Positions 12,755 to 49,100 are shown, counted from the first letter of the stretch. The stretch: 64,000 nt of DNA from Oscillospiraceae bacterium (GCA_015063885.1 SVTH01000001.1:91182-155181); one strand, 5' to 3'. Made by a program: numbers and translations. The notes: a model not told the origin generated them from the sequence alone.

Positions 12755-13933
12755 ATGACTTACGAAACTCCTTCCCGGGCCGCCAAGCGACTTGGGGTAA
12801 CCACCCGCGCCATTCAGAAATGGGCGGTGGAGGGAAGGATCCCCGGTGCAACCAAAATGGCAGGGAACTGGATGATCCCCGCCGATTTCACGGAGCCCGC
12901 CCCCAAGGGCGGAACGGCCCCTGCTGTCAATATTCCCATGCGGCAGAACAACTCCCTTTTGAACGTGGAGTTCAAGCCCGGGGAATGCCTTGCTTACGTG
13001 GAGTCTCTTACGGACGAGGACGAGAAGAAGCTTGCCTACGCAGAGTACTGCTATTACAGAGGCAAGCCGGAAGAGACCATCCGTATCGCCGAGAACTATA
13101 TCGGCCACGAAAATCCCTACCTGCGCACCACCGCGTGCCTGATGTATACCTTCGCCAACCTGAGCTGCGGCCATATCCATATGGCAAAGTTCTCCCTGGA
13201 CCTTCTGCAGCAGTTTTTCTCCAAGGTGGATGCGGTGGCCAAGATCCCGCAGATCCATTCCCAAAAGGTGTGGATCGGCCACGCCGCCACCACGCTTCTT
13301 CATCTTTCCGACGAAAACGTGGAGCCCTTGGAGGATTGGCTCCGCTACCTCCCCGGGGGTATGAAGATGTTCGCCTGCTATATCATCGCCCACAAAATGG
13401 TGCTGGAAAATAAATTCCAGGGCGCCCACGCCGTGGCGAAGATCGTCGTGGAGCTCAGCCCCGAGCACTATACCATCCCCATGATCTATTGCAAGATCAT
13501 CGACGCCGTCGCTCTGATGAATCTCAAGCGCGTGGAGGATGCGGAGAAACGGTTTATGGTCGCTTGGAACCTGGCCGCTCCCGATGGGTTCATCGAGCCC
13601 TTCGGAGAGCATTATCTCATGCTTCAGGGCATCGCGGAGCGCTGTCTCAAGAACAGCCAACCCGAGGCCTACAAAAAGATCTCCGATTGCGCCGCCGTGT
13701 TCAGCAAGCATTGGCGCACCCTTCACAACGAGATGACCGGCAACAACGTCAGCGGCGACCTCACCACCACCGAGTTCTCCATCGCCATGCTGTATACCCG
13801 GGGCTGGTCCGCCAAGGAGATCGCCGCCCACCTGGATATCTCGGTGCGAACGGTCTACCGCCATATTTCCAACATCTATGCCGTGCTGGGGATCCGCAGT
13901 GTGGCAGAGCTGAAGGAGTTTGTCTTAAAATAA
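12755..13933 (+). CDS. LuxR/GerE-type regulator with an extra N-terminal excisionase/MerR-like HTH
   Basis: 392 aa. N-terminus AAKRLGVTTRAIQKWAVEGRIPGATKMAGNWMIP, helical middle region, C-terminus TTTEFSIAMLYTRGWSAKEIAAHLDISVRTVYRHISNIYAVLG (LuxR HTH). Confidence 0.8.
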   Translation: MTYETPSRAAKRLGVTTRAIQKWAVEGRIPGATKMAGNWMIPADFTEPAPKGGTAPAVNIPMRQNNSLLNVEFKPGECLAYVESLTDEDEKKLAYAEYCYYRGKPEETIRIAENYIGHENPYLRTTACLMYTFANLSCGHIHMAKFSLDLLQQFFSKVDAVAKIPQIHSQKVWIGHAATTLLHLSDENVEPLEDWLRYLPGGMKMFACYIIAHKMVLENKFQGAHAVAKIVVELSPEHYTIPMIYCKIIDAVALMNLKRVEDAEKRFMVAWNLAAPDGFIEPFGEHYLMLQGIAERCLKNSQPEAYKKISDCAAVFSKHWRTLHNEMTGNNVSGDLTTTEFSIAMLYTRGWSAKEIAAHLDISVRTVYRHISNIYAVLGIRSVAELKEFVLK

Positions 13934-14180: not shown

Positions 14181-14480
14181 ATGGCAGACCGTAAGATCCG
14201 CTGTTTTGAAATAGACGGCGACGTACTTGAAATCGAATACGTCTACGATCCCGAAACCGGACGCTGGCTCGGTAATTATCCCGTTTTCGTGGAAACGCCC
14301 CGCTATACTCCCGGCGGAAGACCCTGGAAGAACGTGTTCGAGTCCGAATGCAGCTTTTCCGATTCCGAGTTCGGAGATTGCGGCGGCTGCAGCCACTTCC
14401 GCAGAGAAGACCCTCTGGACGTGATAGCCGTTTGTTACTGCGAAGAATTGCGGGAGGTGCCCCATGGATCAGAACCGTGA
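14181..14480 (+). CDS. Small Cys-rich hypothetical protein
   Basis: Track ORF trimmed to ATG 14181 downstream of a TTGCGA..TATAAT promoter-like pair (14120-14147). Contains FGDCGGCSHF and VCYCEE. Overlaps the lepB start. Confidence 0.45.
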   Translation: MADRKIRCFEIDGDVLEIEYVYDPETGRWLGNYPVFVETPRYTPGGRPWKNVFESECSFSDSEFGDCGGCSHFRREDPLDVIAVCYCEELREVPHGSEP

Positions 14481-15057
14481 ACAAGACCGTGATCTGAACG
14501 TTCCCTCCTTGGAGGAGATCAACAAGGAGCGGAAGCGTATCCGACGCGGCTTCTACTACCGCAAAGCCATGAAGGGCACCGTTTCCGTGCTCATCGTGGT
14601 AGCCGCCGTGGCAGTGCTCATCGCAACCCTGTTCCTGCCCATCCTGCAGATCTCGGGAGACAGTATGTCGCCCACCTTTAAAGACGGCGAGATCGTGGTG
14701 CTGTTCAAAAGCAGCAACTTCGAAAGGGGAGACGTGATCGGCTTCTATTACCAGGGCAAGATCCTCTTAAAGCGAGTGATCGCCTGCCCGGGGGATACGG
14801 TGGTCATCGACGGCGAAGGCAACGTGTACGTCAACGCCCGGCTTCTGGAAGAGGACTACGTCAGCGAAAAGAGCCTGGGCGACTGCGACCTGGAATTCCC
14901 CTATACTGTTCCCGAGGAAAGTTATTTCGTCATGGGCGACCGCAGAAGCAATTCCGTAGACAGCCGCAACACCGCCATCGGCTGTATCCCCAAGGATCAG
15001 GTCATCGGCAGGGTATTCCTGAGAGTCTGGCCCTTAAACAGCTTTGATTTTATCTGA
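14464..15057 (+). CDS. lepB: Signal peptidase I, LepB (S26A) type
   Basis: 197 aa. N-terminal TM, catalytic Ser box SGDSMSPTF, Lys box LLKRVIACPGD, GDRRSNSVDSR. Confidence 0.85.
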   Translation: MDQNREQDRDLNVPSLEEINKERKRIRRGFYYRKAMKGTVSVLIVVAAVAVLIATLFLPILQISGDSMSPTFKDGEIVVLFKSSNFERGDVIGFYYQGKILLKRVIACPGDTVVIDGEGNVYVNARLLEEDYVSEKSLGDCDLEFPYTVPEESYFVMGDRRSNSVDSRNTAIGCIPKDQVIGRVFLRVWPLNSFDFI

Positions 15058-15092: not shown

Positions 15093-17900
15093 TTGCCCAA
15101 CACCGTACAACAGTTTCTGCAAAACCGAAAACTGAATCATAAAAAGCGCCTGCGGTTGGTAGCTATCCTGTTGCTTCTTTCTCTCTGCGTCTCCGCAGAG
15201 GTGTTCTGGTCCCTGCGCCGAACGGGCGTCGCCATGGCAGGGGAAGCCCATTGCGGCATCATCGAGCACTCTCACGGCGATTCCTGCGGGGAGAACTGCT
15301 CCTTGGAAGAGCACGTTCACTCCATGACCTGCTATTCCGACGAGAACGCCGATCGGGAGGTAAAAGCGGATTGGGAGCTGTCCCTCAGCGGCGTCCCCTT
15401 CACCGACAGCCTGGCAAACGACCTGGTTGCGGTTGCAAAGACCCAGCTGGGCTACACCGAAAGCACCGCCAACTTCCACGTGGATGAAAACGGCGTCCGT
15501 CACGGCTATACCCGTTACGGACAGTGGTACGGAAGCCCCTACGGCGATTGGTCCTCCATGTTCGTGGCCTTCTGCCTGTACTACACGGGCGTCCCCCACG
15601 GTGTGATCCCCATGTATTCCGGAGACGAGACCCTCCGCATGGCGTGGGAGGAACTGGGACGCTACGTTCCCGCTGCGGAACACGATCCGGAGAAGGGAGA
15701 CCTGGTCTTCCTGGATCCCAACGGAGACGGCCGGGCCGATGGGGTGGGCATCCTCACCGAGGTGACGGACTCCTCCCTGAAGCTGATCGCAGGGGACGTC
15801 AACGACGCCGTTTCGGAGCTTGCTTATCACAAGAGCGAGACGACGGTTCAAGGCTACGTACCCGTTTCCGCCGTTCAGGCTGTTCTGTGGGAAAGCGGGA
15901 CCATCCGCCTGCGCCGTTCCGTCGCCCTTCCCACCTTCGGAGCAGGAAACGCCGTTACCCTGGATTCCTCCTCCCAGATCATCAAGCCGGGCGGCGCCAA
16001 TTCCGCCACCGACGGCACCAAGGTCAGCAAGGTCATTGCGGGCACCGGCATTGAGAACATTTTCGACATCACCCTTACCGTAGAGACCTCCCAAAAGATC
16101 GAGGAGATCTACGAGGAGCCGGACATGGCGGTGGTCATCGTCATGGACATCTCCAACACCATGGTCACCGGTTATCTTTCCGACGGTAAGAGCAGATACG
16201 CCGCGGCGGTGGAAGCCGCCACGGATTTTCTGGAGCATTTTGCCGAAGAGGCGGGAGCGGTCAGCGAAGTGGGCTTCGTAGCCTTCAACACCTCCGCTCA
16301 TAAGATCTTTGACCTCCAGCAGTGCGACACCCAAGCGCAAGCCGCCGCACTGGCAGGCAAGATGTCTTCCGAGACAAATAAGATCATCAGTCAGTATCTC
16401 CCCAATTCGGTATCCAATACCTATTATCAATCCATGCGCTTCACCAACATTGAAGGCGGGTTGAAGATGGGATGGGATATGATCAAGGATTCCCACTGCG
16501 AGAACAAGCACATCATCTTCTTGAGTGACGGATTCCCCACCACCTATCTGAAAAATCACAACGGTACCGATTATGCGGGCTACGACCCCAACACCGGGAG
16601 CGGCACCAAAGGCCAGGACGGCGTCTTCTACGATTACGTAACGGGCTACTACTGCTCCTACGGTACCAGCTACAGCGATAAGGCAGCCATCTATGCAAGA
16701 CAAATGGCCACCGGCATCAAGAACGCCGGCGGCAAGATCTTCTCCATCGGCATCGACATCGGCGGCCAGACCATCGCAGGCTACGACGGAAGAACCGGAC
16801 TCTCGGTCATCGACCGTTCCGGCAAGACCTACGAATTGGGCTCCGCCGACGATCCCAACGCCTTCAAAAATTGGCTTGGCAATAAGATCGGCTCCGGCTA
16901 CTACTACGACAGCACCGACACCGCAGGCCTGAAAGCGGCCTACGACGCCGTCTTCGACGAGATCCGACGGCTCCGCGAGGAAGGGGCCAAGGCGGACTGG
17001 ACCTCCACGGACCCCCTGCCCCTCATGGGCGCCTCGGAGACCCATTCCGTAGAATTCATCGGCTTCTTCGACGTGGGCGGTAACCTGGTTCCGCTGTCAC
17101 AGTCCAACTCCCTGGCAGGCACCCACATGACGGGTGCGGAGGATACGGTGTATTTCGATTCCTCCGATCACCAGATCCATTGGGACCTGAAGAACTCCGG
17201 CTATACCTCCGTCTCCTCGGGAGGGGTCACCTACTACAAATACGAGGTGGTCTACCGGGTGAGGCTACGCAACGAATGCCATTGCTTCGTGGAGCACCAG
17301 GAGTACGACACCAACGACGTGACCACGCTGAATTACCGTTTGATCGAGTCCGTCGACGGACAGCAGACCATTTCAGTAAACAAGACCTTGAATTATCCCA
17401 TCCCCTCCGTCAAAGGCTACCGCGGGGAGTTCACCTTCCAAAAGGTGGATCCCAACGGCGGGGCGGTGGCGGGTGCGGAATTCACCCTCAGCCACGACAC
17501 GGAAAACTGTAAGATCTGCCACGGCGACGGCACCTCCGTCACCACGGTTCCCGATTATGTTGCAGTCTCCGATGAAAACGGCACCGTCACCTTCACGGAG
17601 ATCCCCTCCGGGCACCGCTACAAGCTGACGGAAACGGGCATCCCCTCCGGCTACCTGGATACGGGGCGCAAGTATTGGGCAAGCGTCTCCTATGACGTTA
17701 CCTCCGTGAACGCCGCCTCCGTCAACGGCACCGCCATTGAGTGGGACGGCAAGGTCCTCAACCTTCTGCCCTACGACCTTCCCGGCACGGGAGGCACGGG
17801 CACCAAGTGGTATCTGATCGTGGGATCCACTCTCATCGCCGTCTCTCTGTTCTGCCTTTTCCTGCAGAACAAAAGACGAAAACAGAGAAGATTGTGTTAA
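15093..17900 (+). CDS. Sortase-anchored pilus tip adhesin (vWA domain, CHAP-like domain, Cna-B/SpaA-like domain)
   Basis: 935 aa. TTG start 7 nt after AGGAGG. Cys/His motifs EHSHGDSC and EEHVHSMTC; CHAP/NlpC-like block YGQWYGSPYGDWSSMFVAFCLYY...GDLVFLD; MIDAS-like VVIVMDISNTM; C-terminal LPGTG plus hydrophobic helix plus KRRKQRR. Confidence 0.8.
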   Translation: MPNTVQQFLQNRKLNHKKRLRLVAILLLLSLCVSAEVFWSLRRTGVAMAGEAHCGIIEHSHGDSCGENCSLEEHVHSMTCYSDENADREVKADWELSLSGVPFTDSLANDLVAVAKTQLGYTESTANFHVDENGVRHGYTRYGQWYGSPYGDWSSMFVAFCLYYTGVPHGVIPMYSGDETLRMAWEELGRYVPAAEHDPEKGDLVFLDPNGDGRADGVGILTEVTDSSLKLIAGDVNDAVSELAYHKSETTVQGYVPVSAVQAVLWESGTIRLRRSVALPTFGAGNAVTLDSSSQIIKPGGANSATDGTKVSKVIAGTGIENIFDITLTVETSQKIEEIYEEPDMAVVIVMDISNTMVTGYLSDGKSRYAAAVEAATDFLEHFAEEAGAVSEVGFVAFNTSAHKIFDLQQCDTQAQAAALAGKMSSETNKIISQYLPNSVSNTYYQSMRFTNIEGGLKMGWDMIKDSHCENKHIIFLSDGFPTTYLKNHNGTDYAGYDPNTGSGTKGQDGVFYDYVTGYYCSYGTSYSDKAAIYARQMATGIKNAGGKIFSIGIDIGGQTIAGYDGRTGLSVIDRSGKTYELGSADDPNAFKNWLGNKIGSGYYYDSTDTAGLKAAYDAVFDEIRRLREEGAKADWTSTDPLPLMGASETHSVEFIGFFDVGGNLVPLSQSNSLAGTHMTGAEDTVYFDSSDHQIHWDLKNSGYTSVSSGGVTYYKYEVVYRVRLRNECHCFVEHQEYDTNDVTTLNYRLIESVDGQQTISVNKTLNYPIPSVKGYRGEFTFQKVDPNGGAVAGAEFTLSHDTENCKICHGDGTSVTTVPDYVAVSDENGTVTFTEIPSGHRYKLTETGIPSGYLDTGRKYWASVSYDVTSVNAASVNGTAIEWDGKVLNLLPYDLPGTGGTGTKWYLIVGSTLIAVSLFCLFLQNKRRKQRRLC

Positions 17901-17970: not shown

Positions 17971-19677
17971 ATGAAAAAAGTTTTATCTCTCGCATTGGTC
18001 ATCGTCATGATGATGGCGCTGAGCATTTCCGCAGTGGCAACCACTGTTTCCATCAACGATCCCGAAAACGTTCTGACGGATCATACCTTCGTAGCTTATC
18101 AGATCCTCGCAGGCGACTACGACGAAACCTCCAAGACCCTGTCCAACATCACCTGGGGCAGCGGCGTTGACGGCGAAGACTTGGTTGCAGAGCTGAAGTC
18201 CGATTCTTACGATGCGGTCTTTGCCAACAAGTTCGACGCTCTGGATTCCACTAAGGTATCCTGCCCCTCCGATCTGGCAGCCATCCTCAAGGAGTTTGCG
18301 GAAACCTCCGCTGAGATCGAAAAGTTTATCGAAATTGCATTCAAGCACACCCACGGCTCCGGCACCACCATCGTGACCTCCGGCACCGACCTTCCTTACG
18401 GCTACTACCTGATCGTCGATACCACCGTGGTATCCGGCGAGTACGCTGTGAACAACGCGGCGCTTCTGCAGGTAGCAGGGGATGATATCACCATCAACGC
18501 CAAGGTTGAAAAGCCCACCATGGAAAAGAAGGTCAAGGAAAACGGCGAGTACACCGCAGACGACGGCTACGGCACAGGCTACAACGACGTTGCAACCTAT
18601 TCCATCGGCGATACCGTTCCCTTCGCACTCTATTCCACAGTTCCGGATCTCTCCCAGTACACCGAGTACGAGATGATCTTCAAGGATAATCTTTCCAAGG
18701 GTCTGACCCTGGATGCCGACAGCATCAAGGTAACCATCGGCGGCGTGGAGATCACCAAGGGCACTGTTTCCGAAGGCGTATTCACCGGCGACTACCACGT
18801 AGAAATCACCCCCGTCACCACCGCAAACCAGGTTCTTCCCCATATGCCCGAAGGAAACACTTTGATCTCCGTACACATTCCCGATCTGAAGAGCATCACC
18901 ATCGACGATGGCACCGGCGCAAGATCTGTGAAGAAGGGCGACAAGATCGTCGTTACCTACGACACCGTTCTCAACAATAACGCCGTGATCGGCACCCCCG
19001 GTAACTTGAATACCGCATACCTTAACTTCTCCAACGATCCCGATTCCGACAGCCACGGTAAGACTCCCGACGATCAGGTCATCGTCTTCACCATGGGTCT
19101 TGAGCTGGACAAGGTTGACGGCGCCAACACTGCTACCAAGCTGAAGGGCGTTGAGTTCGCAGTTTGGAAGGACGAAGCCAAGTCCGCTTTCGCAATCGTC
19201 GATGCCAATAAGAGATTCGCAGGGTGGGTAGATGCAAGTACTCTCACCGATACCAACTCCGACGGTCTTGTCAACGTTTACGACTACACCTCTGCCGAGT
19301 ACACCGCAGTTTACGTCACCGATACCAACGGCAACGTTTCCATCTACGGTCTGGACAACGGCACCTACTATGTAGAAGAGACCAAGGCGCTGGCAGGCTA
19401 CAACAACATCTTGGGTCTGATCCCCGTCACCATCAATGCAGATACCGTTTACGGTCAGACCTGGGATCTTTCTCCCGACTCCGCTCTGAAGGGTCTTGCC
19501 AACGATACCGATTCCGATTGGCTCACCGAGAAGCAGATCCAGAACTTCGGCGGTACCGTTCTCCCCGAGACCGGCGGCATCGGCACCGTACTCTTCATCG
19601 CAGCCGGCTGCGTTCTGATCCTGGGCGCTTCCGTTGTGATGGTGACCCGCAAGAAGATGTCCGTATACGAAGACTGA
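17971..19677 (+). CDS. Major pilin (isopeptide/SpaA-type backbone subunit), LPETG-anchored
   Basis: 568 aa. Signal peptide MKKVLSLALVIVMMMALSISAVA, Cna-B-like GVEFAVWKDE, YYVEETKALAGY (E-box-like), C-terminal LPETGG plus TM plus RKK. Confidence 0.8.
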   Translation: MKKVLSLALVIVMMMALSISAVATTVSINDPENVLTDHTFVAYQILAGDYDETSKTLSNITWGSGVDGEDLVAELKSDSYDAVFANKFDALDSTKVSCPSDLAAILKEFAETSAEIEKFIEIAFKHTHGSGTTIVTSGTDLPYGYYLIVDTTVVSGEYAVNNAALLQVAGDDITINAKVEKPTMEKKVKENGEYTADDGYGTGYNDVATYSIGDTVPFALYSTVPDLSQYTEYEMIFKDNLSKGLTLDADSIKVTIGGVEITKGTVSEGVFTGDYHVEITPVTTANQVLPHMPEGNTLISVHIPDLKSITIDDGTGARSVKKGDKIVVTYDTVLNNNAVIGTPGNLNTAYLNFSNDPDSDSHGKTPDDQVIVFTMGLELDKVDGANTATKLKGVEFAVWKDEAKSAFAIVDANKRFAGWVDASTLTDTNSDGLVNVYDYTSAEYTAVYVTDTNGNVSIYGLDNGTYYVEETKALAGYNNILGLIPVTINADTVYGQTWDLSPDSALKGLANDTDSDWLTEKQIQNFGGTVLPETGGIGTVLFIAAGCVLILGASVVMVTRKKMSVYED

Positions 19678-19749: not shown

Positions 19750-20601
19750 ATGAAAAAAAACGTCACAAAAACGGGAATCATCCTGTTAGCGATCCTCCTC
19801 GTAGGCATCTGTGTATTGCTTTACCCCACCTTCAGCCGGTATTGGAACTCCCGCACCCAGTCCCGGGCCGTGGAAAACTACCGCGAGATCCTGGATTCCT
19901 TAACGGAAGACCAATACGCAGAGCTGTTCGACCGCGCAGCCGCCTACAACGCAGAGCTGCAGACCCTTGCCACCCCCTTGTGGCACTACAACCAAGTCAA
20001 GGGCTACAACGATATCCTCAACGTCAGCGGCACGGGCATCATGGGGTATATCACCATCGAAAAGCTGGGCGTTGAGCTCCCCATCTACCACGGCACCTCC
20101 GCCGACATCTTAAACGACGCCTGCGGACACCTGGAGGGCTCCTCCCTTCCCGTGGGAGGGCCGGGCACCCACTCCGTCCTTTCCGCCCACCGCGGCCTGC
20201 CCCACGCAAAGCTGTTCACCGACCTGGACAGAATGGAGCAGGGCGACACCTTTACCATCACCATCCTGGACCGCACCGTGACCTACATGGTGGATCAGGT
20301 CAAGGTGGTGCGTCCGGATCAAACGGAGGACCTGGAGATCGTCCCCAACGAAGAGTATTGCACCCTGCTGACCTGCACCCCCTACGGCATCAATTCCCAC
20401 CGTCTGCTGGTGCGGGGCACCCGTATCGAAAACGCAAAACCCATCCTTTATGTCACGTCCGATGCCTATATGATCGACTCCCTGGTGGCGACCCCCGTGG
20501 TGGCGGCGCCCATCCTGCTGGTTCTGTTGATCTATCTGATGGTCAAATACCGTGACAAAGGCAGTAAACCCATCATTGTGGAAAAGGAGAACGAAGAATG
20601 A
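19750..20601 (+). CDS. srtC: Class C (pilin-polymerising) sortase
   Basis: 283 aa. N-terminal and C-terminal TM helices, SAHRG (His), TLLTCTPYG (Cys), LLVRG (Arg). Confidence 0.9.
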   Translation: MKKNVTKTGIILLAILLVGICVLLYPTFSRYWNSRTQSRAVENYREILDSLTEDQYAELFDRAAAYNAELQTLATPLWHYNQVKGYNDILNVSGTGIMGYITIEKLGVELPIYHGTSADILNDACGHLEGSSLPVGGPGTHSVLSAHRGLPHAKLFTDLDRMEQGDTFTITILDRTVTYMVDQVKVVRPDQTEDLEIVPNEEYCTLLTCTPYGINSHRLLVRGTRIENAKPILYVTSDAYMIDSLVATPVVAAPILLVLLIYLMVKYRDKGSKPIIVEKENEE

Positions 20602-21536
20602 AAAACAAAGTCAGCCTCATCATCCTGACGGTATGCCTTCTTTTGATCCCCTATACCGTATACGCTCTTTCCACCGATCAAGCCAAGGAGCCCGTCGATC
20701 CCGACGCCCTGTGTACCCTCACCTTGACCTACGCCTCCGCCGAGGCTGCATTGCCCCCTCTTACGGTGGAGGTGTACCGTGTGGCAGAGGTCTCCCGGGA
20801 TTTCCGTTATACCCTTACGGAAGCCTTCGGCGACAGCGGCTTGATCCTGAACGGCCTGCTCTCCCAAAGCGAGTGGAACACCCTGCGTACCACCCTGGAT
20901 TCCTACGTGACCTCCAACGGCGTGTCTCCTACGGCCACCCTTACCACCGACGAGAACGGCGCGGCATCCTTTGCCGACCTGGCAACGGGCCTGTACTACG
21001 TCTCTCCCCAAACCGTCACCGTGGACGGCTTCCGTTACTACTTCGCTTCCGCCGTGATCGCCCTCCCCGACCTGCGTGAGGACGGCACCTGGAACTACGA
21101 GATCACCGCCAAGCCCAAGCCCGACGTCCGCCCTCCCTCCTCCACCGACCTGGAATACCGCGTTCTCAAGCTGTGGAAGGGCGGGGAAGAGGAGACCCGT
21201 CCCACGGAGATCACCGTTGACCTGCTGAAGGACGGCACCGTGGTGAAAACCGTCACCCTCTCCGAGGAAAACGGCTGGAGCTACTCCTGGTTTGCCGCCG
21301 ACGACGGCAGTCTTTGGACGGTGGCGGAGCAGAACGTTCCCGAGGGCTATACCGTCACCGTGGAACAGAACGACACCGTCTACACCGTGGTGAATACCCT
21401 GGAATCCTCCGACGATTCCAGCATGGGCAACCCCGGCGACGCAGGCAACCTGAACTTCATCATTCTCTTCCTTTGCGCCGCAGGGATCGTCTTGGTCCTG
21501 CTGGGCATGCAGAGAAGAAAGGGCGTTGAAGCATGA
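20598..21536 (+). CDS. Minor/basal pilin with Cna-B domain and non-canonical sorting signal
   Basis: 312 aa. Signal peptide, Cna-B block KLWKGGEEETRPTEITVDLLKDGTVVKTVTLSEENGWSYSW...VPEGYTV. The tail is NPGDAG plus hydrophobic helix plus RRKG instead of LPxTG. ATGA overlap with srtC. Confidence 0.65.
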   Translation: MKNKVSLIILTVCLLLIPYTVYALSTDQAKEPVDPDALCTLTLTYASAEAALPPLTVEVYRVAEVSRDFRYTLTEAFGDSGLILNGLLSQSEWNTLRTTLDSYVTSNGVSPTATLTTDENGAASFADLATGLYYVSPQTVTVDGFRYYFASAVIALPDLREDGTWNYEITAKPKPDVRPPSSTDLEYRVLKLWKGGEEETRPTEITVDLLKDGTVVKTVTLSEENGWSYSWFAADDGSLWTVAEQNVPEGYTVTVEQNDTVYTVVNTLESSDDSSMGNPGDAGNLNFIILFLCAAGIVLVLLGMQRRKGVEA

Positions 21537-22117
21537 AAAAGACCAACCGTACCACCCTTCGCAACCTGTGCATCGTCGCAGGTTGCGCCCTTATTGTGGG
21601 CGCCTTGGCGTTGCTGATCCTCAGCGTGGCCTCCCGCTCCCTCTACCGCTTTCGCTGTGCGGAATACGTCTCCGCCATCGGGGCGACCCTCCCTCCCGTG
21701 GAAAACGCCGTTCCCGAGCCGGGCAGAAACAACACCATGCCCGTCCTTCCCGTAGAGGGTGTGGATTTCGTGGCCTTGCTGGAGCTTCCCGCTTTCCAAA
21801 CCCGTCTCCCCGTGTGCAACCAATGGGGGAGCCCCGAGAAATACCCCTGCCGCTTCACCGGGAGCGCCTACGACGGTACCTTGATCGTAGGGGTGCAAGA
21901 GCACCTTTTCCCCGCGGCGGAGCAGCTCTACGTCGGCGATCTCCTCACCCTCACGGACATGACGGGCAACCGTTTCTCCTACCGTATTGCCAACATCGAG
22001 ATCCACGAAAACGTGGAAGCCGAGACCCTGCAAGACACCGATCACCCCCTGACCCTGTTCGTCAAGCACTCCTTTTCCTCCAAATACACCGTCCTCCGCT
22101 TGGACGTGGCGTTGTAA
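21533..22117 (+). CDS. Sortase-fold-like membrane protein lacking the canonical TLxTC cysteine
   Basis: 194 aa. N-terminal TM. GTLIVGVQEHLF...YVGDLLTLTD...YRIANIEI...HPLTLFVKH...LRLDV aligns by eye to the sortase His, GD, TLxTC and Arg blocks, with Lys/His where the Cys is expected. Confidence 0.4.
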   Translation: MKKTNRTTLRNLCIVAGCALIVGALALLILSVASRSLYRFRCAEYVSAIGATLPPVENAVPEPGRNNTMPVLPVEGVDFVALLELPAFQTRLPVCNQWGSPEKYPCRFTGSAYDGTLIVGVQEHLFPAAEQLYVGDLLTLTDMTGNRFSYRIANIEIHENVEAETLQDTDHPLTLFVKHSFSSKYTVLRLDVAL

Positions 22118-22348: not shown

Positions 22349-23080
22349 ATGAAAGAAAAAGGGTTCAATAAGCAAAAGCTCCTGACGATCATCGGGGCAG
22401 TGCTGTGCGTGATTTTGATCCCCATCCTGGTGATCAACGTCACCCTGATCGTCAAAAGCTTTGTCAACCAGGACGAGGTCCCCAGCGTAGGCGGCTACTT
22501 GCCCCTCTTCGTGTTGACCGACTCCATGTATCCCGAGATTGAAAGCGGAGACTTGATCATCTGCCAAACCATTGACCCTTCCGAGATCAAGGTGGGGGAC
22601 GTGATCTCCTTCTTTGACCCCGAGGGCAACGGAACCAGTGTGGTCACCCATAAGGTCATCGAGATATTGAACGATAACGGCACCCTCTCCTTCCGTACCC
22701 AGGGTACCAACAACAACACGCCCGACGCCCTGCCCGTCCCCGCCGAGAACCTGGTGGGCATCTACCGCAGCCGCATCCCCGGCGCAGGCAGTGTCGCCAT
22801 GTTCCTGCAGACGGTTCCCGGTTTGATCGTATGTATCGTCCTGCCCATCGGCATCTTCGTGGCTTACGAGGTCATCCGCCGCCGTAAGTTCGATAAGGAA
22901 AAGCAGGAGGACACTAAGGCTCTCCTGGCAGAGCTGGAAGCCCTCCGTGCCCAGCAGGCACATGCCCAGCAGGCCGCCGCTAACCAAGCCAAAGCCGCAG
23001 AAACCCCTGTGGAAACTCCCGAGGAAACTCCCGAGGAAACTCCTGCGGAATCTCCCGAGGATAACACCCCCGCAGAGTAA
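22349..23080 (+). CDS. sipW: SipW-type (S26B, archaeal/ER-like) signal peptidase I, copy 1
   Basis: 243 aa. N-terminal TM, Ser box LTDSMYPEI, His box VVTHKVI, TQGTNNNTPD, second TM, then a coiled/low-complexity tail (ETPEETPEETP). Confidence 0.85.
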   Translation: MKEKGFNKQKLLTIIGAVLCVILIPILVINVTLIVKSFVNQDEVPSVGGYLPLFVLTDSMYPEIESGDLIICQTIDPSEIKVGDVISFFDPEGNGTSVVTHKVIEILNDNGTLSFRTQGTNNNTPDALPVPAENLVGIYRSRIPGAGSVAMFLQTVPGLIVCIVLPIGIFVAYEVIRRRKFDKEKQEDTKALLAELEALRAQQAHAQQAAANQAKAAETPVETPEETPEETPAESPEDNTPAE

Positions 23081-23199
23081 ACACCTTTCTCCGTTTCCCC
23101 GCATCACGCTCAAATCAGAACGCTAAGGGCCCTTTTAATCTGTAGCCGTGTGCCGAACTTCTCGCACCATACTCCAAAAAACGGCTTCGCACTACCGCC

Positions 23200-23345
23200 T
23201 CCCGCCCTTTTTGTCACCCTGAGCGAGGAGGGGCGTACAGCGTTCCTGTGGGAGCGCCGCAGAACCAACCCCGACGAGTCGTACTCTTATTTGCGGCGTG
23301 AGCCCAAATAAGAGGCAAAAACGGCAAGCCGTTTTTGAGGGTCTC
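23200..23345 (-). repeat. Partial inverted copy of the 33.9-35.1 kb repeat unit
   Basis: The reverse complement aligns by eye to 34273-34410 and 34692-34825 (accctcaaaaa-hairpin-tttttg, ctcttat..gggctcacgcc..ataagag, ctcgctcagggtgacaaa). Confidence 0.7.
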
Positions 23346-23588
23346 GTTCCCCCATAGCGGCAACGCCTCACCCACACCCCGCCGACAACTGTTTACACGA
23401 CCCCCGGTATTTATCCCTCAAAAGCCACGCTGAGGGTGAATATAAAAAATGCCGCGGCATTCTCCGCGATGGGCAATCACCAAAAACACGTGGATGCCCG
23501 GCAATATTCCCCCCGTTAGGATCGGGAGGGATAAATAACAAAAGGTTTTGGGGGACTCCAAAACCAACATGAAAGGAGATTCATTTTT

Positions 23589-24290
23589 ATGAAGAAAAAC
23601 TTGATGATGAGAATGGCTTCCGTTCTCTTGATCGCAGTCCTGATGTCCACCTGCGCCATCAGCGGCACCTTCGCAAAGTACGTAACTTCTGATGAAGGTT
23701 CTGACATGGCGCGCGTTGCTAAGTGGGGCGTTGTAGTTGAAGCAAAAAACTTCGGCATGTTCGAGATGGATTATGAAACCGATGATGACGAAGCAACTTT
23801 TACTGGCGACTACTCGGTATCTTCCGCTAAAGGCGATCGTGACGATCTTTTGGCACCCGGTACGAGCGGTTCTTTTGCTAACATTAAGATCACCGGTACT
23901 CCCGAAGTAGCTGTTGATGTTTCCATCGTTGCAACTGTTGTAGTTTCTGAAAACTGGATTGATGGCGATGGCAATTTCTATTGCCCCGTTGTTGTAACTG
24001 TTGGTGCTGCTAAGTTTAATGGCTTGGATTATGCTTCTGCTACTGATTTTGCGAAAGCTATCCAAGATGAAATTAAGGGAAAGTCTATGCAGTACGCTCC
24101 CAACACCAATCTTGCAGAAATCTATGATAACACCAATTTGGATCTGGCTTGGGCATGGGCATTCGAGAATGCTACAGGCACCGAGAACAACCAAACCGAT
24201 GTAAAGGATACTTTCCTTGGCAACGCTGCCGTTACCGAAGATCTGACCATCTCTATCGGTGTTTCTATCACCGTTACCCAGATCGACTAA
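23589..24290 (+). CDS. TasA/camelysin-like secreted protein with SipW-cognate-type signal (candidate major fibre subunit)
   Basis: 233 aa. AAAGGAGA RBS. N-terminus MKKNLMMRMASVLLIAVLMSTCAISGTFAKYVTS, ARVAKW, LAPGTSG, WAWAFE...DTFLGN...LTISIGVSITVTQID. Lower GC than its neighbours. Confidence 0.65.
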   Translation: MKKNLMMRMASVLLIAVLMSTCAISGTFAKYVTSDEGSDMARVAKWGVVVEAKNFGMFEMDYETDDDEATFTGDYSVSSAKGDRDDLLAPGTSGSFANIKITGTPEVAVDVSIVATVVVSENWIDGDGNFYCPVVVTVGAAKFNGLDYASATDFAKAIQDEIKGKSMQYAPNTNLAEIYDNTNLDLAWAWAFENATGTENNQTDVKDTFLGNAAVTEDLTISIGVSITVTQID

Positions 24291-24443
24291 TGAAACCTTA
24301 TTCGTCTCTCCGACCCGACGTGGCAGGGTCGGAGGGGCGTACCCCTAAAAGCTTCTATTTCTTTGCAAGCTCCCGTCTTTTTGGGCGACGGAAGTCTACA
24401 AAGGAACGGAACCTTTTCCGAACCATTGCAAAAAGGAGGAACC

Positions 24444-43181: not shown

Positions 43182-46100
43182 TTAACCTATCTGCTGCATC
43201 AACAGAACGCAGTCGTAAATGGTCAGCACGCCGTCGAAGTCAAAGTCGAACAATGCCTCCGACTCCGTGTTGCCCACCAGGATGGACAGGAGCAGCTGTG
43301 CGTCCCCTTCGGTAACCGCGCCGTCCCCGTCCACGTCGTAATCGACCGCCTTTTCACGGCTCTCCACCTCACCGCAGACGCGGCAAGTACGTTCCTCCCT
43401 GCCGGGCGCACCGTCAGTCCAATCGCTCCAATCGTGCCCTGCCGCAGGAATCACTTCCTCCTGCAGAACAACGCCGCAATGGATGCAGACCTCTTGCTTC
43501 AACCCGTCCTCGGAACAGGTGGCTTCCTTTGCAACCACCCATTCTCCGCCGTGCTGAGCGCAAGGCTCCGCCGTGCGGAACTCAACGGGCTTCTTGCAAA
43601 CAGTGCAATACCGTGCTTCCACGCTGTCCTCGCCCTGCTCACCGGGCAGATACAGCTCCCAATCGGAAAGCACGTGAGCACAACCCACAGACTGAACGCC
43701 CGTGCCGTTGCCCTGCACCTCGTCTACCCGACGGAACCTGCCGCACTCGGAGCACACGAAGTAATACGCCCGATCGCCCTCGTACCCGAACAGCAGATCC
43801 AGCAACTTCTCGATCAGGATCCGCAGCCAGGACTTGGCAACGTACTTCTTCTCGTACTTGTGCGCCGTCTTGGGAATGCTTTCCCGCACCTGACGCCCGC
43901 ACTCTTCGCAGGTGTAAAGCGCCGTCCCCTCCTGATCGCAGGTAGGCTCCTTGACCACCTTCGGGGTGTAACGATGCCCCGCGGCGGGAATCACTTCCGT
44001 TTCCTCCAGACCGCATTCCCCGCAAGAACGGACCTTCAACCCTTCCTTCTTGCAGGAAGCAGGGATATCCGCCGTCCACTCACCAAAGGCATGCCCCTTG
44101 GCAGGCGTCACGTCGGTTCTCACCTCGCGGCCGCAGGTGCCGCAGGTATGGAGCACGTAACCCTCCTCCGTACAGGTGGGCTGTACGGTGACGGAGGTAT
44201 CACTGTGTCCCAAAGCCTCCACGTGATCCGTACCGTAATACTCGTCGCAAACGGTACAGGTGTGCTTGTAGAAGCCCTTTTCCTCGCAGGTGGGCGCCAC
44301 CCAAACGGCCTCGCCGTAAACGTGTCCGTCACCGTGATGCTTCCAGGAAGCGTAGATGGTCACGTCGCCCGTCACGGTCATTCCTTCGTAGTGGTTGCTC
44401 CACCCCAGGAAATCGTGCCCCTTCTTCTCGGGCGCCTCGGGCAACACCACCAAACTGCCGTAGGGCAGGGTAGCGGTGTGGTAAACCTTGCCGTTCAGAT
44501 CTCCGAAGGTCACGGTGTAAAGTTTCTGAACCTTCTCTACGATGGGGCGGACCTCCAGATCCACCGCCGTGGTTGCGGGGATGTGATCCGCTATCCAGTC
44601 GCCGTCCAGATCCCAGCCCTTCACAACGTAGGAGAACCCTTCTTCTCCTTCCGGCTCGTAAACGGGTAGCCGAATGATCTCGCTGTTCAGCTTGGGCTCA
44701 CGGCTGATCACGTTCCCCTCACCGTCGTAGAAGGTCACCCAGCTCCATTCATCTCCGTAAACCACCTTGTTTCCGTTGCTCCACCCCGGGAAGTTATCGT
44801 CCCACCGCAGATCCTGCTCCAACGCCTCCACGTAAATGGTAATCCCGGTGATGTTTTCTGATGTGAAGAGGGTTTGGCAATGCCGCAGATCGGAGGGAGA
44901 AACAGTATCGCAGATCACAACGCTTTTCAGCGTCAACGGGAGATTGTACAAACCACTTGTAAATTCATCTATTTTATAGATGAAAAGAGTTTCGACGTTG
45001 GTGGGTAAATCATTTAAATGATGCCAAATCGCCTGTTTAAGCATATTACATCCTTGGTATGCACTATAGCAAACGCCTCGAATCCCGTCTATTTTGCTCA
45101 TATATTCGCAATTTTCTGACAATTCAATCAACCAACCGTCGATGATAATTCCTTGGGAGCATTGATACTTAGGGTTGTTGAACAATTTGGTACAGCCGAA
45201 GAATGGCGACAGACCAAGGCTTTCCAAACTTTCGGGAAGGTTAATGCTTTCTAAGTTAGAGCAATTCTCAAAGGCACCTTCTCCAATGGATCTAATGTTA
45301 TCCGGAAGCGTAATGCTGGTTAGGTTGTTGCATCCGCTAAAAGCCTTCTCATCGATATAGGTGACACTGCCCGGTATGACAATACTTGTTAGTCCTGTGC
45401 GGTTTTTAAACGAACTATGTCCAATGTAGGTCACACCGAAGGGAATCGAAACACTTCCTTGGATTCTGGCGGGAACGTAAATAATTCTTGTGCCATCCTT
45501 AGAATACAGAACGCCATCGTAGGAAGAAAATGTTGGGTGATCTGCCGCAACGGTAATTCTCTGCACTCCGCTTTCGGTTCCAAACGTAGGGATTGATGTT
45601 ATTTCATTCGGAATAATAACTTCCTTGACGCCGCAGAAATTATGAATTGAATAAGTAACGCCATTAATGCTCGTGGGAAGCTCTACTGCATCCAATTCTC
45701 CGATGTATGCTATCAATGTATACCGATCTTTTTCGTAGATAAAGCGGAAACCCTCTGCGGTATCAACATAGGTGCTCTTGCTGTTTTCATCTAACCAAAT
45801 TTTGTTTCCGTTGGCATCTGTTACAACTTTTGAATAATAGCCGACATAGCCTGCGGCTTCGCTTCCGGGTATAATCGTAAGGGAGCTATTATTAACTACC
45901 TCAAACAAATTGACGCAGCCGTTAAACGCATTGGTATTAATTGCAACCACGTTTTCGGGAATTGTAATTTTCGTTAATCCGGAGCAACCGAAGAACATCG
46001 ACCAACTGAGCGCCTTCAAATTCTCGGGCAACGTAACTTGAGTAAGGTTGCAACAACCGCTAAAGATACTTTCACCAACATCGGTTACATTTTTACCAAT

Positions 46101-49100
46101 ATAGACCGTTCTTAAATTTTGGCAATCCATAAACGCTTGAGTCTCAATCCGAGTCACGCTATCGGGGATCGTAATGCTGATCAACTTGTTTGATCCGGTA
46201 AACATATGTGCTGGAATTGTCGTGATTCCTTCGGGAAGAATCACATTTCCCGGAATCTCATCGGAAACGTAAACAATTCGCGTCAGCTCTTTGTCGTAAA
46301 GGATCCCGTCCTTCCAGACAAAAGCGTTGTTACTGCTTGACACTTCCAACTTAGTGCTTTGGGGGAACGCACTCTCTCCAATACTAGTTACCGTATCGGG
46401 AATCGTGATAGACTTTAGCTTGTAGCAATACATGAAAGCGCCGTAGTCAATTGCAGTTAAGCCTTCAGGCAAAGTGACAGTGCTCAAATTTTCGCATTGA
46501 CTGAATGCCCACGCTCCGATTGCAGTAACCCTATCGGGAATTGTAATTTCGGTCAGGCTACCGCAAAAACGGAACGCATACCCTTCGATCCGTTCAACAC
46601 TGCTCGGAAGCTCAATGTGTTTCAAACTGCTGCAGCCGCTAAAAGCTTCGATAGGAATTGTTGTTATGCCATACGGAATGTTGATGCTTGTTAAACTACT
46701 GCACCCCAAAAATGCATGATCGTAAATAACAGATAGGTTGTTGGGAAGCGCGATGTTTAGCAAACTACTGCAGTTTCTAAAAGCCGCCCCGCTAATTTGG
46801 GTTAAGCTGTCCGGAAGGGAGACGCTTGTCAAATGAATGCAATTCGAAAATGCATTAGAACCAATCCGCGTAACTCCTTCCGGGATTACGATGCTTCTTA
46901 ACTTTACGTTCTCGGAAAAAGCAGAATCGGGAATCTGTGTTATTCCGTTCGGCAAACTCAAATTTTCCGGAATCTTGTCGCTGACAAATATGATTTTTTT
47001 AAAGTCTGCGTCATATAGGATACCGTCAAGCATCCGATACGCTGTATTTGAGCCGACAAAAGCCACATCCGTGTTTTTTGAAAACGCATTTTCGCCAATG
47101 TCGCAAACGCTTTCCGGAATGTCAATCTTTGCTAATTTGGGACACTGCACAAAGGCACGCGTTTCTATTGTAGAAACAGTATTCGGAAGAGAGACCGATC
47201 CCAAATTATCGCAACCTTCGAACACACCACAGCTTATTTGCTGCACTCCTTCAGGGATTTCTATCTCCGACAAGCTTGAGCAATTGGCAAAAGCATAGAC
47301 TTCGATGGTTTTCACTCGTTCGGACATTTTAATGGATTTGAGGTTAGAGCACTGACTAAACGCCATCACGCCTATTTCAGTTACACTATTCGGTAGAGTC
47401 ACACTTTTAATAGATTTGTTTTCATAAAAAGCATATTCATCGATACGGACTCTCCCTTCGGGAATGACCACATTTACGCCGCCGATAAAACGATCTATTT
47501 TGTAGGGGTTACCGTTTATATCTTTGGGTAAAGCAATCGTTTCCGATAAACCTTTATATGCGCACAGTGTATAGGTGTTATCCGAATCTTTCGTGAACAA
47601 GAATTGGTCGCTTGTTTCTATGTATTCGATTCCTGTATCCACATAGTTCTTATTTCCATCTCTATCAACGATCAAATTTGCGTTTACAGCAATCCCACCG
47701 TAAGAATCGCTTCCCAGCTGCAGATCAAGTGTGCTATAATTATAGATAGTTCGAAGATCACTGAACTCGAACGCATATGATTCGATGTTTTTCAGATTGG
47801 CGCCCAATGTGATCATGCTTAGGCCGCTCCAAGAGAAGGCCTTTTCTTCAATCGTGATAACGTTATCCGGTATGACGATATTCTGTAATTTATAACAACC
47901 ATCGAACGCTTCTGCACCGATGTAGGTTACTCCTTCAGGAATTTCGACTATCGCTAAGTTATGACACAGACGGAAGGTTCCTTTTTCAATTGATGTGAGG
48001 CCTTTCGGGAGGGATACCTTATACAAATTTGAGCAACCTCCAAATACTCCATAGTCCATAGTTGTAACACTATCGGGGATCTCAAGTGTCTCAAAGCCCG
48101 AGCCGGCAAAGGCGCACAATTCTAAGGTAGTTAAACTATTCGGAAGGATCAGCTCCGTGATATTATGAACATTTTCAAATGCATAATACCCGATAGATGT
48201 TGTTTCTTTCGAAAGCTCCAATCTTCCTTGTATGCCGGAACCAAAGTGCCCTTTGTAAGGTTTTACCACTACTTTCTTTTGGAAAGTATCATACCAATAT
48301 GCCGTGATCACATTCGTCAACTCATATTTCGCCGTCGTCTCCGCAAAAGCATTTTCGTGTAATACACTTACAGAATGGGGCATGTTGATGGTTTCCAAGC
48401 CGAGACAGTAAGCAAACCCACCGGTATAAACCGCGGTAATCCCCTCCGTAATGGTCACGGTTTTCAAGCTTTCCGGCACGTAAGTCTCGTTCGCTTCATA
48501 CGCTCCCGCACCAAAGATATAACCAAACCAAGAGATCTCCTCGTCCTCGTAAGAGGCGCCGATAAAGGGCAGGGTGACCTCGGTGAGCTTGTTGCAATCC
48601 TCAAAAGCGCCGATGCCGATGATCAGCTCCTTCTTGTTGGTGTCCGGGATGGTCAGCTTGGTGATGTCCGTGCCCAGGAAGGCGTACGCCCCGATATCGA
48701 TGAGCGTCTCGGGAGCGGTAAACTCCCCGCCGATGGAGGTATACGCAAAGGCATAGTCATAGATCCCCTTGACGGCGTTGCTTTCGCCCAGGGGCAGGGA
48801 AGTGATCTTAGCGCACCCGTAGAAGGCGAAATCCGAGATCTCCACGATGGCATCGGGAATCACGATGTTCTCCAGATTGATATCCCCGCAGAAAGCGCCC
48901 TCGTAGATACCCTTCAGACAGTTGCCCTTTGCAAAATTCACGGTGTGCAGCTTTTCGCAGTAAGCGAATGCGTAGTAGTCAATAGACACCACGCTGGCAG
49001 GGACGTGGATCACGGTCAGATTCTTCGCCCGGAAGAAAGCACGGTAGCCAAAGGTCAGAATGTTGGCATTAGGATCAAACAATACCTCCTCCAGCGCCGT

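Follow-up and report, generated by a model that had tools for sequence, protein, structure and literature searches.

We identified a sortase-fold protein without a catalytic triad, encoded by the last open reading frame (ORF) of a six-gene pilus operon, in a stretch of DNA of 64,000 nucleotides from an Oscillospiraceae bacterium (GCA_015063885.1 SVTH01000001.1:91182-155181; this 64-kb stretch is referred to below as the window, and coordinates are counted from its first nucleotide). The protein of 194 amino acids (21533-22117, + strand), which we call the pseudo-sortase, is encoded directly downstream of a minor, base-type pilin of 312 amino acids (20598-21536, +) whose sorting signal is decayed. 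We put the probability at roughly 55% that the pseudo-sortase is a non-catalytic protein that handles the sorting signal of the base pilin in termination and anchoring of the pilus. Of the three options offered by a first-pass annotation of the sequence, a role as pseudo-sortase or chaperone in capping or termination provided the best fit, with the protein coupled to the minor (base) pilin, whereas the remaining option, a dedicated non-cysteine transpeptidase, is taken up further below.

To characterize the pseudo-sortase, we obtained a structure model with AlphaFold2 from an alignment of the protein family. The model (predicted local distance difference test score of 89.4, predicted template modeling score of 0.81) consisted of an N-terminal helix at amino acids 4-52, including a transmembrane segment at 12-33, followed by eight strands. 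The best 50 matches in a Foldseek search of the PDB were all sortases (E values down to 2e-08, probability of 1.00), and the matches comprised Actinomyces oris SrtC-1, Clostridium perfringens SrtC, SrtC1 and SrtA of group B Streptococcus (GBS), Bacillus anthracis SrtA and SrtD, and Thermobifida fusca SrtE. The template modeling score for the model and the catalytic domain of GBS SrtA was 0.71. Alignment of the family profile with the class C sortases of the same loci by hhalign yielded probabilities of 97-98% (E values of 6e-13 to 9e-11), and PF04203 (Pfam Sortase) matched 24 of the first 30 relatives, collected by a word-seeded search, at E<=0.01 (best, 4.8e-08). The window protein itself had no Pfam match and scored 15-16 bits with the NCBIfam class GN and class D models, for which the cut-offs are 140-165. 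The sortase barrel suspected in the first-pass annotation is thus present in the model, and the 194-amino acid protein is a true sortase homologue by both fold and profile, with a resemblance far beyond chance. Of six features that define sortases, the barrel and the N-terminal anchor are present, whereas the catalytic Cys, His, and Arg are missing and the scores fall below the thresholds of the hidden Markov models (HMMs). The N-terminus is basic and rich in KK/R, and the hydrophobic segment at amino acids 12-33 (21566-21631) follows it; from the positive-inside rule, we infer an N-terminally anchored, type II membrane protein with an extracellular domain.

We compared the pseudo-sortase with class C and class D sortases (PF04203, MEROPS C60; C. 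perfringens SrtC 6ixz/7d6t, A. oris SrtC-1 2xwg, and C. perfringens SrtD 4d70). The N-terminal anchor, the eight-stranded barrel, and the setting in a sortase-pilus operon are common to both, and the IP...LPV, GD, Y-x-Y-x-V, and (D)LTLF blocks are recognizable. The pseudo-sortase is, however, shorter (~195 amino acids), with shorter beta3-beta4 and beta7-beta8 loops and no C-terminal transmembrane helix. The catalytic Cys is replaced by K/R, the His by S/T/Q, and the Arg by Tyr, and the family has motifs of its own, namely YPCRFxGSxYD, TDMxG, and a terminal Y-x-x-x-R-C.

The positions of the lost catalytic residues were mapped by alignment. In the best-scoring local hhalign alignment with class C sortases, T174-L175-F176-V177-K178 of the pseudo-sortase fell on T-L-L-T-C, Tyr185 fell on the catalytic Arg of SHR, and Arg189 fell on the second, non-catalytic Arg of RLLVR. 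In the alignment produced by hmmsearch with C. perfringens SrtD (4d70), Gln122 fell on the His of IAGH; the hhalign alignment with class C sortases differed from this one around the His region, yet likewise contained no His. The Cys, His, and Arg columns are therefore occupied in the window protein by Lys178 (22064-22066), Gln122 (21896-21898), and Tyr185 (22085-22087), respectively. The absence of a Cys at the TLxTC position (PLTLFVK), which had already been pointed out, therefore held true and extended to His and Arg, with no correctly placed Cys appearing in the best alignment. The sequence blocks that had been likened to those of sortases (VGVQEH, YVGDLLTL, HPLTLFVKH, and LRLDV) do occupy the expected regions of the sortase fold, but His124 is off the catalytic His column and Arg189 does not correspond to the catalytic Arg, the place of which is taken by Tyr185.

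Loss of the triad is a property of the family, for which residue statistics were obtained from 172 sequences (cluster representatives). The Cys column contains K in 81 sequences, R in 66, and Cys in none, and the Arg column contains Tyr in 158 of the 172. The His column (position 122) is occupied by S in 64 sequences and by T in 33 (97 of 172, or 56%), and there is no conserved His at positions 121-124. Neither the canonical Cys nor the canonical His was present in any member (0 of 172). With Lys/Arg in place of Cys, Ser/Thr (Gln in the window protein) in place of His, and Tyr in place of Arg, the pseudo-sortase is incapable of cysteine transpeptidation. In six relatives (P0024, P0041, P0043, P0061, P0083, and P0145), a Cys is located one residue before the canonical Cys column and is followed by His or Arg (DLTLFC[H/R]D); a thiol in the vicinity of the former active site may have survived in these members or may have arisen anew.

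The family is large. An exhaustive profile search of clusters formed at 50% identity returned 3121 cluster representatives at E<=1e-3, of which 2392 reached E<=1e-10 and 349 reached E<=1e-30. Inspection covered the best 150 of these 3121 matches, all of which were ~190-200 amino acids in length. We collected ~25 distinct loci (41 fetched) by way of GTDB genomes, metagenomes (6 added), and exact-protein look-ups, and further loci were reached independently from the pilin; the GTDB search made use of a 13-sequence subset alignment, and all loci were derived from metagenome-assembled genomes. The gene order was constant in the ~25 loci: [signal peptidase], tip adhesin (LPxTG), major pilin (LPETG), class C sortase, Cna_B pilin, and pseudo-sortase. 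The pseudo-sortase gene was located directly 3' of the Cna_B pilin gene in every locus, from whichever direction the search was made, and a stop/start overlap was present at every junction of these two genes that was read. In the window, the TGA stop codon of the minor pilin gene (21534-21536) overlaps the ATG of the pseudo-sortase gene at position 21533, confirming the ATGA overlap described in the first-pass annotation. At its other end, the minor pilin gene overlaps that for the class C sortase, again by ATGA (20598-20601), so that the final three genes of the operon form an overlapping series. The pseudo-sortase loci come from gut and rumen Clostridia that have not been cultured (Oscillospiraceae, Eubacteriales, Ca. 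Avispirillum, and Ructibacterium). The gene pair is more general than one odd locus. The ratio of nonsynonymous to synonymous substitution rates (dN/dS) for the pseudo-sortase gene of the window and those of relatives was 0.15-0.32, and it was lowest for the comparison with L018, the locus of the other lineage whose pilin signal lacks Thr. The gene is thus under purifying selection and is not a relic.

We next consider the partner of the pseudo-sortase. The minor pilin consists of a signal peptide, an N-terminal pilin domain, a Cna_B domain (PF05738, 1.7e-12; also PF17802, 2.8e-05, and Cna B-repeat 1d2p, 1.5e-19), and the decayed sorting signal. Its C-terminus reads ...SSMGNPGDAGN-LNFIILFLCAAGIVLVLLGM-QRRKGVEA, in which MGNPGDAG (amino acids 276-283; 21423-21446) is followed by the hydrophobic helix LNFIILFLCAAGIVLVLLGM (amino acids 285-304) and a basic tail that begins with QRRK (helix and tail, 21450-21533), in agreement with the earlier description of an NPGDAG tail. 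The signals of orthologous pilins take a different form, including IPETGDT, PPKTGDT, PPQTGDT/S, APQTGDT, SPKTGDT, and VPSTGDT, with a consensus of PPQTGDT. Among 120 clusters of orthologous pilins, 110 possess xPxTG[D/E]; position 1 is P in 71 clusters and L in 2, and T follows G-D in 103. With the exception of that of the window, each of the remaining clusters shows a single substitution (xPxSG, xSxTG, xAxTG, PPKAG, or PPQTS). At these loci, the base pilin differs in this respect from the pilins of tip and shaft, which have LPxTG[G/A].

The window tail MGNPGDAG aligned without gaps with IPETGDTG of orthologues (L001, L019-L021, and P0198-P0203). The Pro at position 2 and the scissile Thr at position 4 have been lost, the P of NPG falls in the Thr column, and Gly-Asp is retained. 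The sister species represented by L018, whose pseudo-sortase is 77% identical to that of the window, has an intermediate tail, IPSPGDAG. Given this intermediate, the signal decayed in a stepwise manner, from IPETG to IPSPG to MGNPG, with Gly-Asp kept throughout. An assembly or sequencing error, or a frameshift, as the origin of MGNPGDAG was rejected: the tail peptide was identical in five independent metagenome assemblies that showed silent differences in DNA sequence, and reading frame and length were the same as in relatives. The proposal that NPGDAG is a new motif in place of LPxTG was not upheld; it is a lineage-specific decay product of xPxTGD, and its residues are out of register, with MGNPG corresponding to IPETG. 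Conservation of the gene pair with its tail was borne out for the pair, which is kept in the ~25 loci, but not for the tail, which is found in 1 of the 120 clusters plus L018. The tails of orthologues are proper sorting signals, not the plain membrane anchors that had been considered as an alternative, but that of the window strain may serve only as an anchor.

The window minor pilin did not match TIGR03063 or TIGR01167 at E<=1. Of its orthologues, P0204, P0206, and P0225 passed the TIGR03063 (srtB_target) cut-off of 18.15 with 19.4-20.8 bits, and P0198, P0209, and P0225 passed that of TIGR01167. The substrates of Clostridioides difficile SrtB carry (S/P)PxTGD, with native downstream residues enhancing cleavage (PMC4155245), and the base pilin FimB of the C. 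perfringens NE pilus carries the TIGR03063 sortase B sorting domain (PMC8088525). The signal of the orthologous base pilins is thus the class B sortase signal of Clostridia. The orthologues resemble these known substrates in the combination of PPxTGD[T/S] with a transmembrane helix and a basic tail and in passing TIGR03063; the known systems differ in that no Cys-less sortase homologue has been described beside the base pilin, and the motif of the window pilin differs from theirs in the loss of Pro and Thr.

The C-terminal part of a class B sortase (GHN...TLSTC...R; TIGR03064, 1.3e-29 for the fragment) was found at 14491-14942 (-) of L038, 6.5 kb from a related pilus operon, and is a candidate for the housekeeping enzyme that acts on PPxTGD signals. 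Searches of the 64-kb window with the class C HMM and the family HMM revealed no second canonical sortase. A scan of the ORF tails of the window did reveal an unrelated secreted protein of 343 amino acids in a neighboring locus (24363-25394, +) that ends with IPPTGDD (25272-25292), a transmembrane helix, and RNRR and that has no pseudo-sortase beside it. The intact IPPTGDD indicates that the window genome still uses a signal of the xPxTGD type, and its occurrence in a protein without an adjoining pseudo-sortase indicates that the signal is generic, and that the job of the pseudo-sortase is specific to the pilus. The type of motif and the presence of the class B sortase in L038 provide circumstantial evidence that the minor pilin may form the base of the pilus, with a housekeeping sortase joining it to the wall. 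Some orthologous base pilins (L024, 8-1162; L034, 6772-8004) possess a Pro/Glu/Asp-rich spacer of up to ~70 amino acids between Cna_B and xPxTGD, which may span a thicker wall.

Alignment of 25 orthologous minor pilins also revealed an invariant Lys column (...PK, ...AK, or ...MK) in a WNYEITAKPK-like motif, which in the window pilin corresponds to amino acids 165-174 (21090-21119). By analogy with the WxxxVxVYPK pilin motif, this Lys is a candidate for the nucleophile that accepts the pilus shaft. Given the presence of an invariant Lys in such a pilin-like motif, the minor pilin should, in the manner of known base pilins, be able to take over the shaft from the class C sortase.

These observations suggest the following scheme. 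The pseudo-sortase retains the sortase barrel with a remodeled substrate groove and is produced together with the base pilin by translational coupling. In the groove, with F176 as its floor and with K/R178, Y185, and R189, it would bind the membrane-proximal sorting signal of the base pilin, which in most species is the class B-type PPxTGD[T/S] rather than the LPxTG[G/A] of tip and shaft. The base pilin would in this manner be held at the assembly site and its invariant Lys presented to the thioester of class C sortase and pilus, with the result that polymerization ends; the non-LPxTG signal would keep the minor pilin itself from further polymerization. The pseudo-sortase may then time, gate, or shield the hand-over to a housekeeping class B sortase for fixation to the wall. 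The finished pilus of the window lineage is probably tethered by the C-terminal membrane helix of the pilin itself. The retention of Gly-Asp in both decayed motifs and the conservation of a basic residue where the Cys used to be are compatible with binding rather than cleavage, although this pattern is suggestive only.

Several points weigh against this scheme. Most partner pilins keep an intact Thr-Gly, which shows that, in the majority of species, it is important for the signal to be cut by a sortase of some kind. The window lineage, with its decayed motif, could also be in the process of losing the whole base-pilin module, although the dN/dS values speak to the contrary. A shifted active site is formally possible in most family members, given the conservation of a Cys at position 190, and the target of the pseudo-sortase could just as well be the class C sortase as the pilin. 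The alternatives were ranked, from the strongest to the weakest, as a partner of the class C sortase (SrtC), an unconventional enzyme, a new sorting signal, and a relic.

According to the first of these, the pseudo-sortase acts on the class C sortase, as a putative SrtC heterodimer, in a switch from polymerization to termination, in regulation of the lid, or in localization. The two genes are always in the same operon, with that for the pseudo-sortase lying two genes after that for SrtC, and the two proteins share membrane topology and fold. The function of the pseudo-sortase has, moreover, persisted despite decay of the pilin motif, as judged from dN/dS. The closest linkage, manifested by the stop/start overlap, is nevertheless to the pilin gene, not to that for SrtC, and the conserved, remodeled groove (F176, K/R178, Y185) is more readily explained by peptide binding. 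We therefore regard a partnership with SrtC as a possible but rather improbable function.

It is less probable still that the pseudo-sortase is an active transpeptidase or protease that itself processes xPxTGD, with a center formed by Cys190, by Cys106/Arg107 on beta3, or by Lys178/Tyr185/Ser122. Column 190 is Cys in 148 of the 172 sequences, Cys106 is present in 116, and Arg107 is present in 141. A global hhalign alignment, with a lower score than the local one, placed column 190 on the catalytic Cys of TLLTC. The replacements of the triad are themselves conserved, in keeping with a site that functions, and a cleavable Thr-Gly is kept by most partner pilins. No nucleophile is invariant, however. 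Column 190 is Leu in the window clade (Leu190 of the window protein, 22100-22102) and, with L, A, F, G, or Y in its place, lacks Cys in 24 of the 172 sequences, from several lineages. One member (P0112) has no Cys at all, and that of L038 lacks both Cys106 and Cys190 even though its partner pilin keeps PPPTGDT. The higher-scoring local alignment, with which the strand order of the model agrees (beta7, 173-178; beta8, 185-192), places K/R at the Cys column. Columns 186, 188, 190, and 192 are uniformly hydrophobic across the family, a pattern that suggests that residue 190 is on a buried face of the strand, opposite Tyr185 and Arg189. Given these properties, including the hydrophobic substitutions at position 190, Cys190 is unlikely to be a shifted catalytic Cys. 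A Cys106-Cys190 disulfide was also rejected, with 48 sequences containing C190 without C106 and the two columns showing no co-variation. As for the remaining candidates, position 178 is Arg, which is no substitute for a Lys nucleophile, in 66 members, and position 122 is S/T in only 56%. With no candidate nucleophile being invariant, we regard the family, on the basis of its sequences, as probably one of pseudoenzymes, with a small remainder of probability left for an unconventional active site. The dedicated non-cysteine transpeptidase suggested in the first-pass annotation thus received no positive support and appears unlikely. A related version, that a competent sortase-fold enzyme without the triad (relocated Cys190 or Lys/Arg178-Tyr185-Ser/Thr122) joins or releases the base pilin at xPxTGD, with the window member (Leu190, Gln122, and a partner lacking Thr) having diverged further, is slightly more doubtful; if true, such an enzyme would represent a mechanistically new class of pilus transpeptidase.

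We consider it quite unlikely that, in the window species, NPGDAG is a functional new sorting signal read by the downstream protein. The identity of the tail in the five assemblies, the PGDAG shared by the window and L018, and purifying selection on both genes are in its favor. The near confinement of the tail to a single pilin cluster, its column-for-column match to xPxTGD with stepwise loss of the key Pro and Thr, and its failure with TIGR03063 and TIGR01167 argue against it, as does the lack of compensation in the partner, in which K178, Y185, and F176 are the same as in relatives whose pilins have IPETGD. Finally, although all three catalytic residues are gone and the window protein is below the Pfam and NCBIfam thresholds, the notion that the gene is a decaying, functionless remnant of a second sortase is effectively refuted by an ORF that is intact in every locus, the hundreds of alignable clusters (31-77% identity to the window protein), dN/dS values of 0.15-0.32, the confident AlphaFold2 fold, and the conserved motifs unique to the family (TDMxG, YPCRFxGS, and DLTLF).

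The favored role, that of a non-catalytic factor for the base-pilin signal, has partial counterparts among known systems. SipA/LepA of Streptococcus pyogenes pilus loci is a signal peptidase-like protein that lacks the catalytic Ser and Lys and is needed for pilus polymerization. It is the nearest conceptual precedent, a dead homologue of a processing enzyme kept in a sortase-pilus operon as an assembly factor, but it has the S26 peptidase fold and not that of a sortase, it acts on polymerization, and the signal peptidase of the window operon keeps its catalytic boxes. SpaB of Corynebacterium diphtheriae, RrgC of Streptococcus pneumoniae, and PilC of Lactococcus lactis resemble the window pilin as small pilins encoded beside a pilus sortase, with a motif unlike that of the shaft and with a lysine that accepts the shaft, a role for which the invariant Lys of the window pilin is the candidate. 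Their transfer to the wall is carried out by an active housekeeping sortase bound to their signal, whereas in the window a non-catalytic sortase homologue is co-encoded and the signal appears uncleavable. In the base-pilin model, the base pilin both terminates assembly and links the pilus to the envelope (PMC8088525).

The other genes of the operon, all on the + strand, are those of a conventional sortase-dependent pilus. The first encodes a type I signal peptidase (14464-15057; TIGR02227, 1.2e-37; PF10502, 1.1e-33) with SGDSM and KRV boxes; a signal peptidase gene also leads the operon in L001, L030, L032, and L038. It is followed by the gene for a tip adhesin (15093-17900) with von Willebrand factor type A, GBS104-like immunoglobulin, and SpaA domains (PF13519, PF21426, PF17802, and PF00746) and by that for a major (backbone) pilin of the SpaH/EbpB type (17971-19677; NF033902, 96.3 bits with a cut-off of 95; TIGR04226, 1.2e-16; PF16569). 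Both tails were read in the sequence and contain the signals previously assigned to them: LPGTG in the tip adhesin (...DLPGTGGTG..., then a transmembrane helix and KRRKQRR) and LPETG in the major pilin (...VLPETGGIG...). The class C pilus-polymerizing sortase (19750-20601; NF033745 class_C_sortase, 2.1e-78, 263 bits with a cut-off of 160) has an intact His/Cys/Arg triad in AHRG, TLLTC, and SHR. A near-perfect 11-bp inverted repeat, CGCAACCTGTG...CGCAGGTTGCG (21560-21587), was flagged by a terminator scan in the start of the pseudo-sortase ORF that encodes the transmembrane segment; it may have arisen by chance or may be a translational or attenuation element.

Just upstream of the operon is a gene for a LuxR/GerE-type helix-turn-helix regulator of 392 amino acids (12755-13933, +). 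Given that in L038 and L039 the related operon is likewise preceded by a gene for such a regulator, this protein is likely the regulator of the pilus operon. In other loci, a gene for a large serine recombinase, or genes for a type IV secretion system coupling protein (TraG/VirD4-like) together with Mob genes, lie directly after the pilus operon (L030/L031, 9198-10928; L032, 9251-10942; L034, 9472-11190). The presence of such genes after the operon in several loci suggests that related pilus operons are carried by integrative or conjugative elements.

A second surface-structure locus (22349-32632, +) is situated directly downstream of the operon in the window. It encodes two SipW-type signal peptidases (22349-23080 and 25391-25960; TIGR02228, 2e-30 and 3e-22, respectively) and three small secreted proteins without a family match (23589-24290, 25911-26504, and 26535-27101), the latter possibly being TasA/camelysin-like fiber subunits. 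Also encoded are the protein of 343 amino acids with the IPPTGDD signal (24363-25394), a Cys/His-rich protein of 1632 amino acids with Listeria-Bacteroides repeats (27128-32026) and an ORF of 195 amino acids without a match (32045-32632). Elsewhere in the window, an ORF of 2540 amino acids (43182-50804, -) contains 15 BspA-type leucine-rich-repeat stretches (PF13306), a Listeria-Bacteroides repeat, and a C-terminal type I dockerin, and its product is, as judged from this domain content, a giant surface or cellulosome-like protein.

In current accounts of sortase pili, the shaft is polymerized by a class C sortase, and both the end of assembly and the anchoring are the work of a housekeeping sortase that is bound to the base pilin. 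To our knowledge, these accounts involve active enzymes only, and no description of a Cys-less or inactive sortase family was found in the literature searched. The pseudo-sortase genes are annotated as encoding a "hypothetical protein," as in the public records MBQ8325232.1 and MBE6578263.1, and are missed by the sortase thresholds of Pfam and NCBIfam. The existence of a large and strictly syntenic family without the triad, adjoining the base pilin, suggests that pilus termination or anchoring in many Clostridia of the gut and rumen involves an additional component that is not catalytic. Among sortase pseudoenzymes, the pseudo-sortase would be the first for which a genetic partner is defined, and it would provide a natural system for the study of sorting-signal recognition apart from cleavage. 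The window lineage, with its apparently uncleavable signal and conserved pseudo-sortase, would in turn constitute a natural experiment on pilus retention by a membrane anchor versus linkage to the wall.

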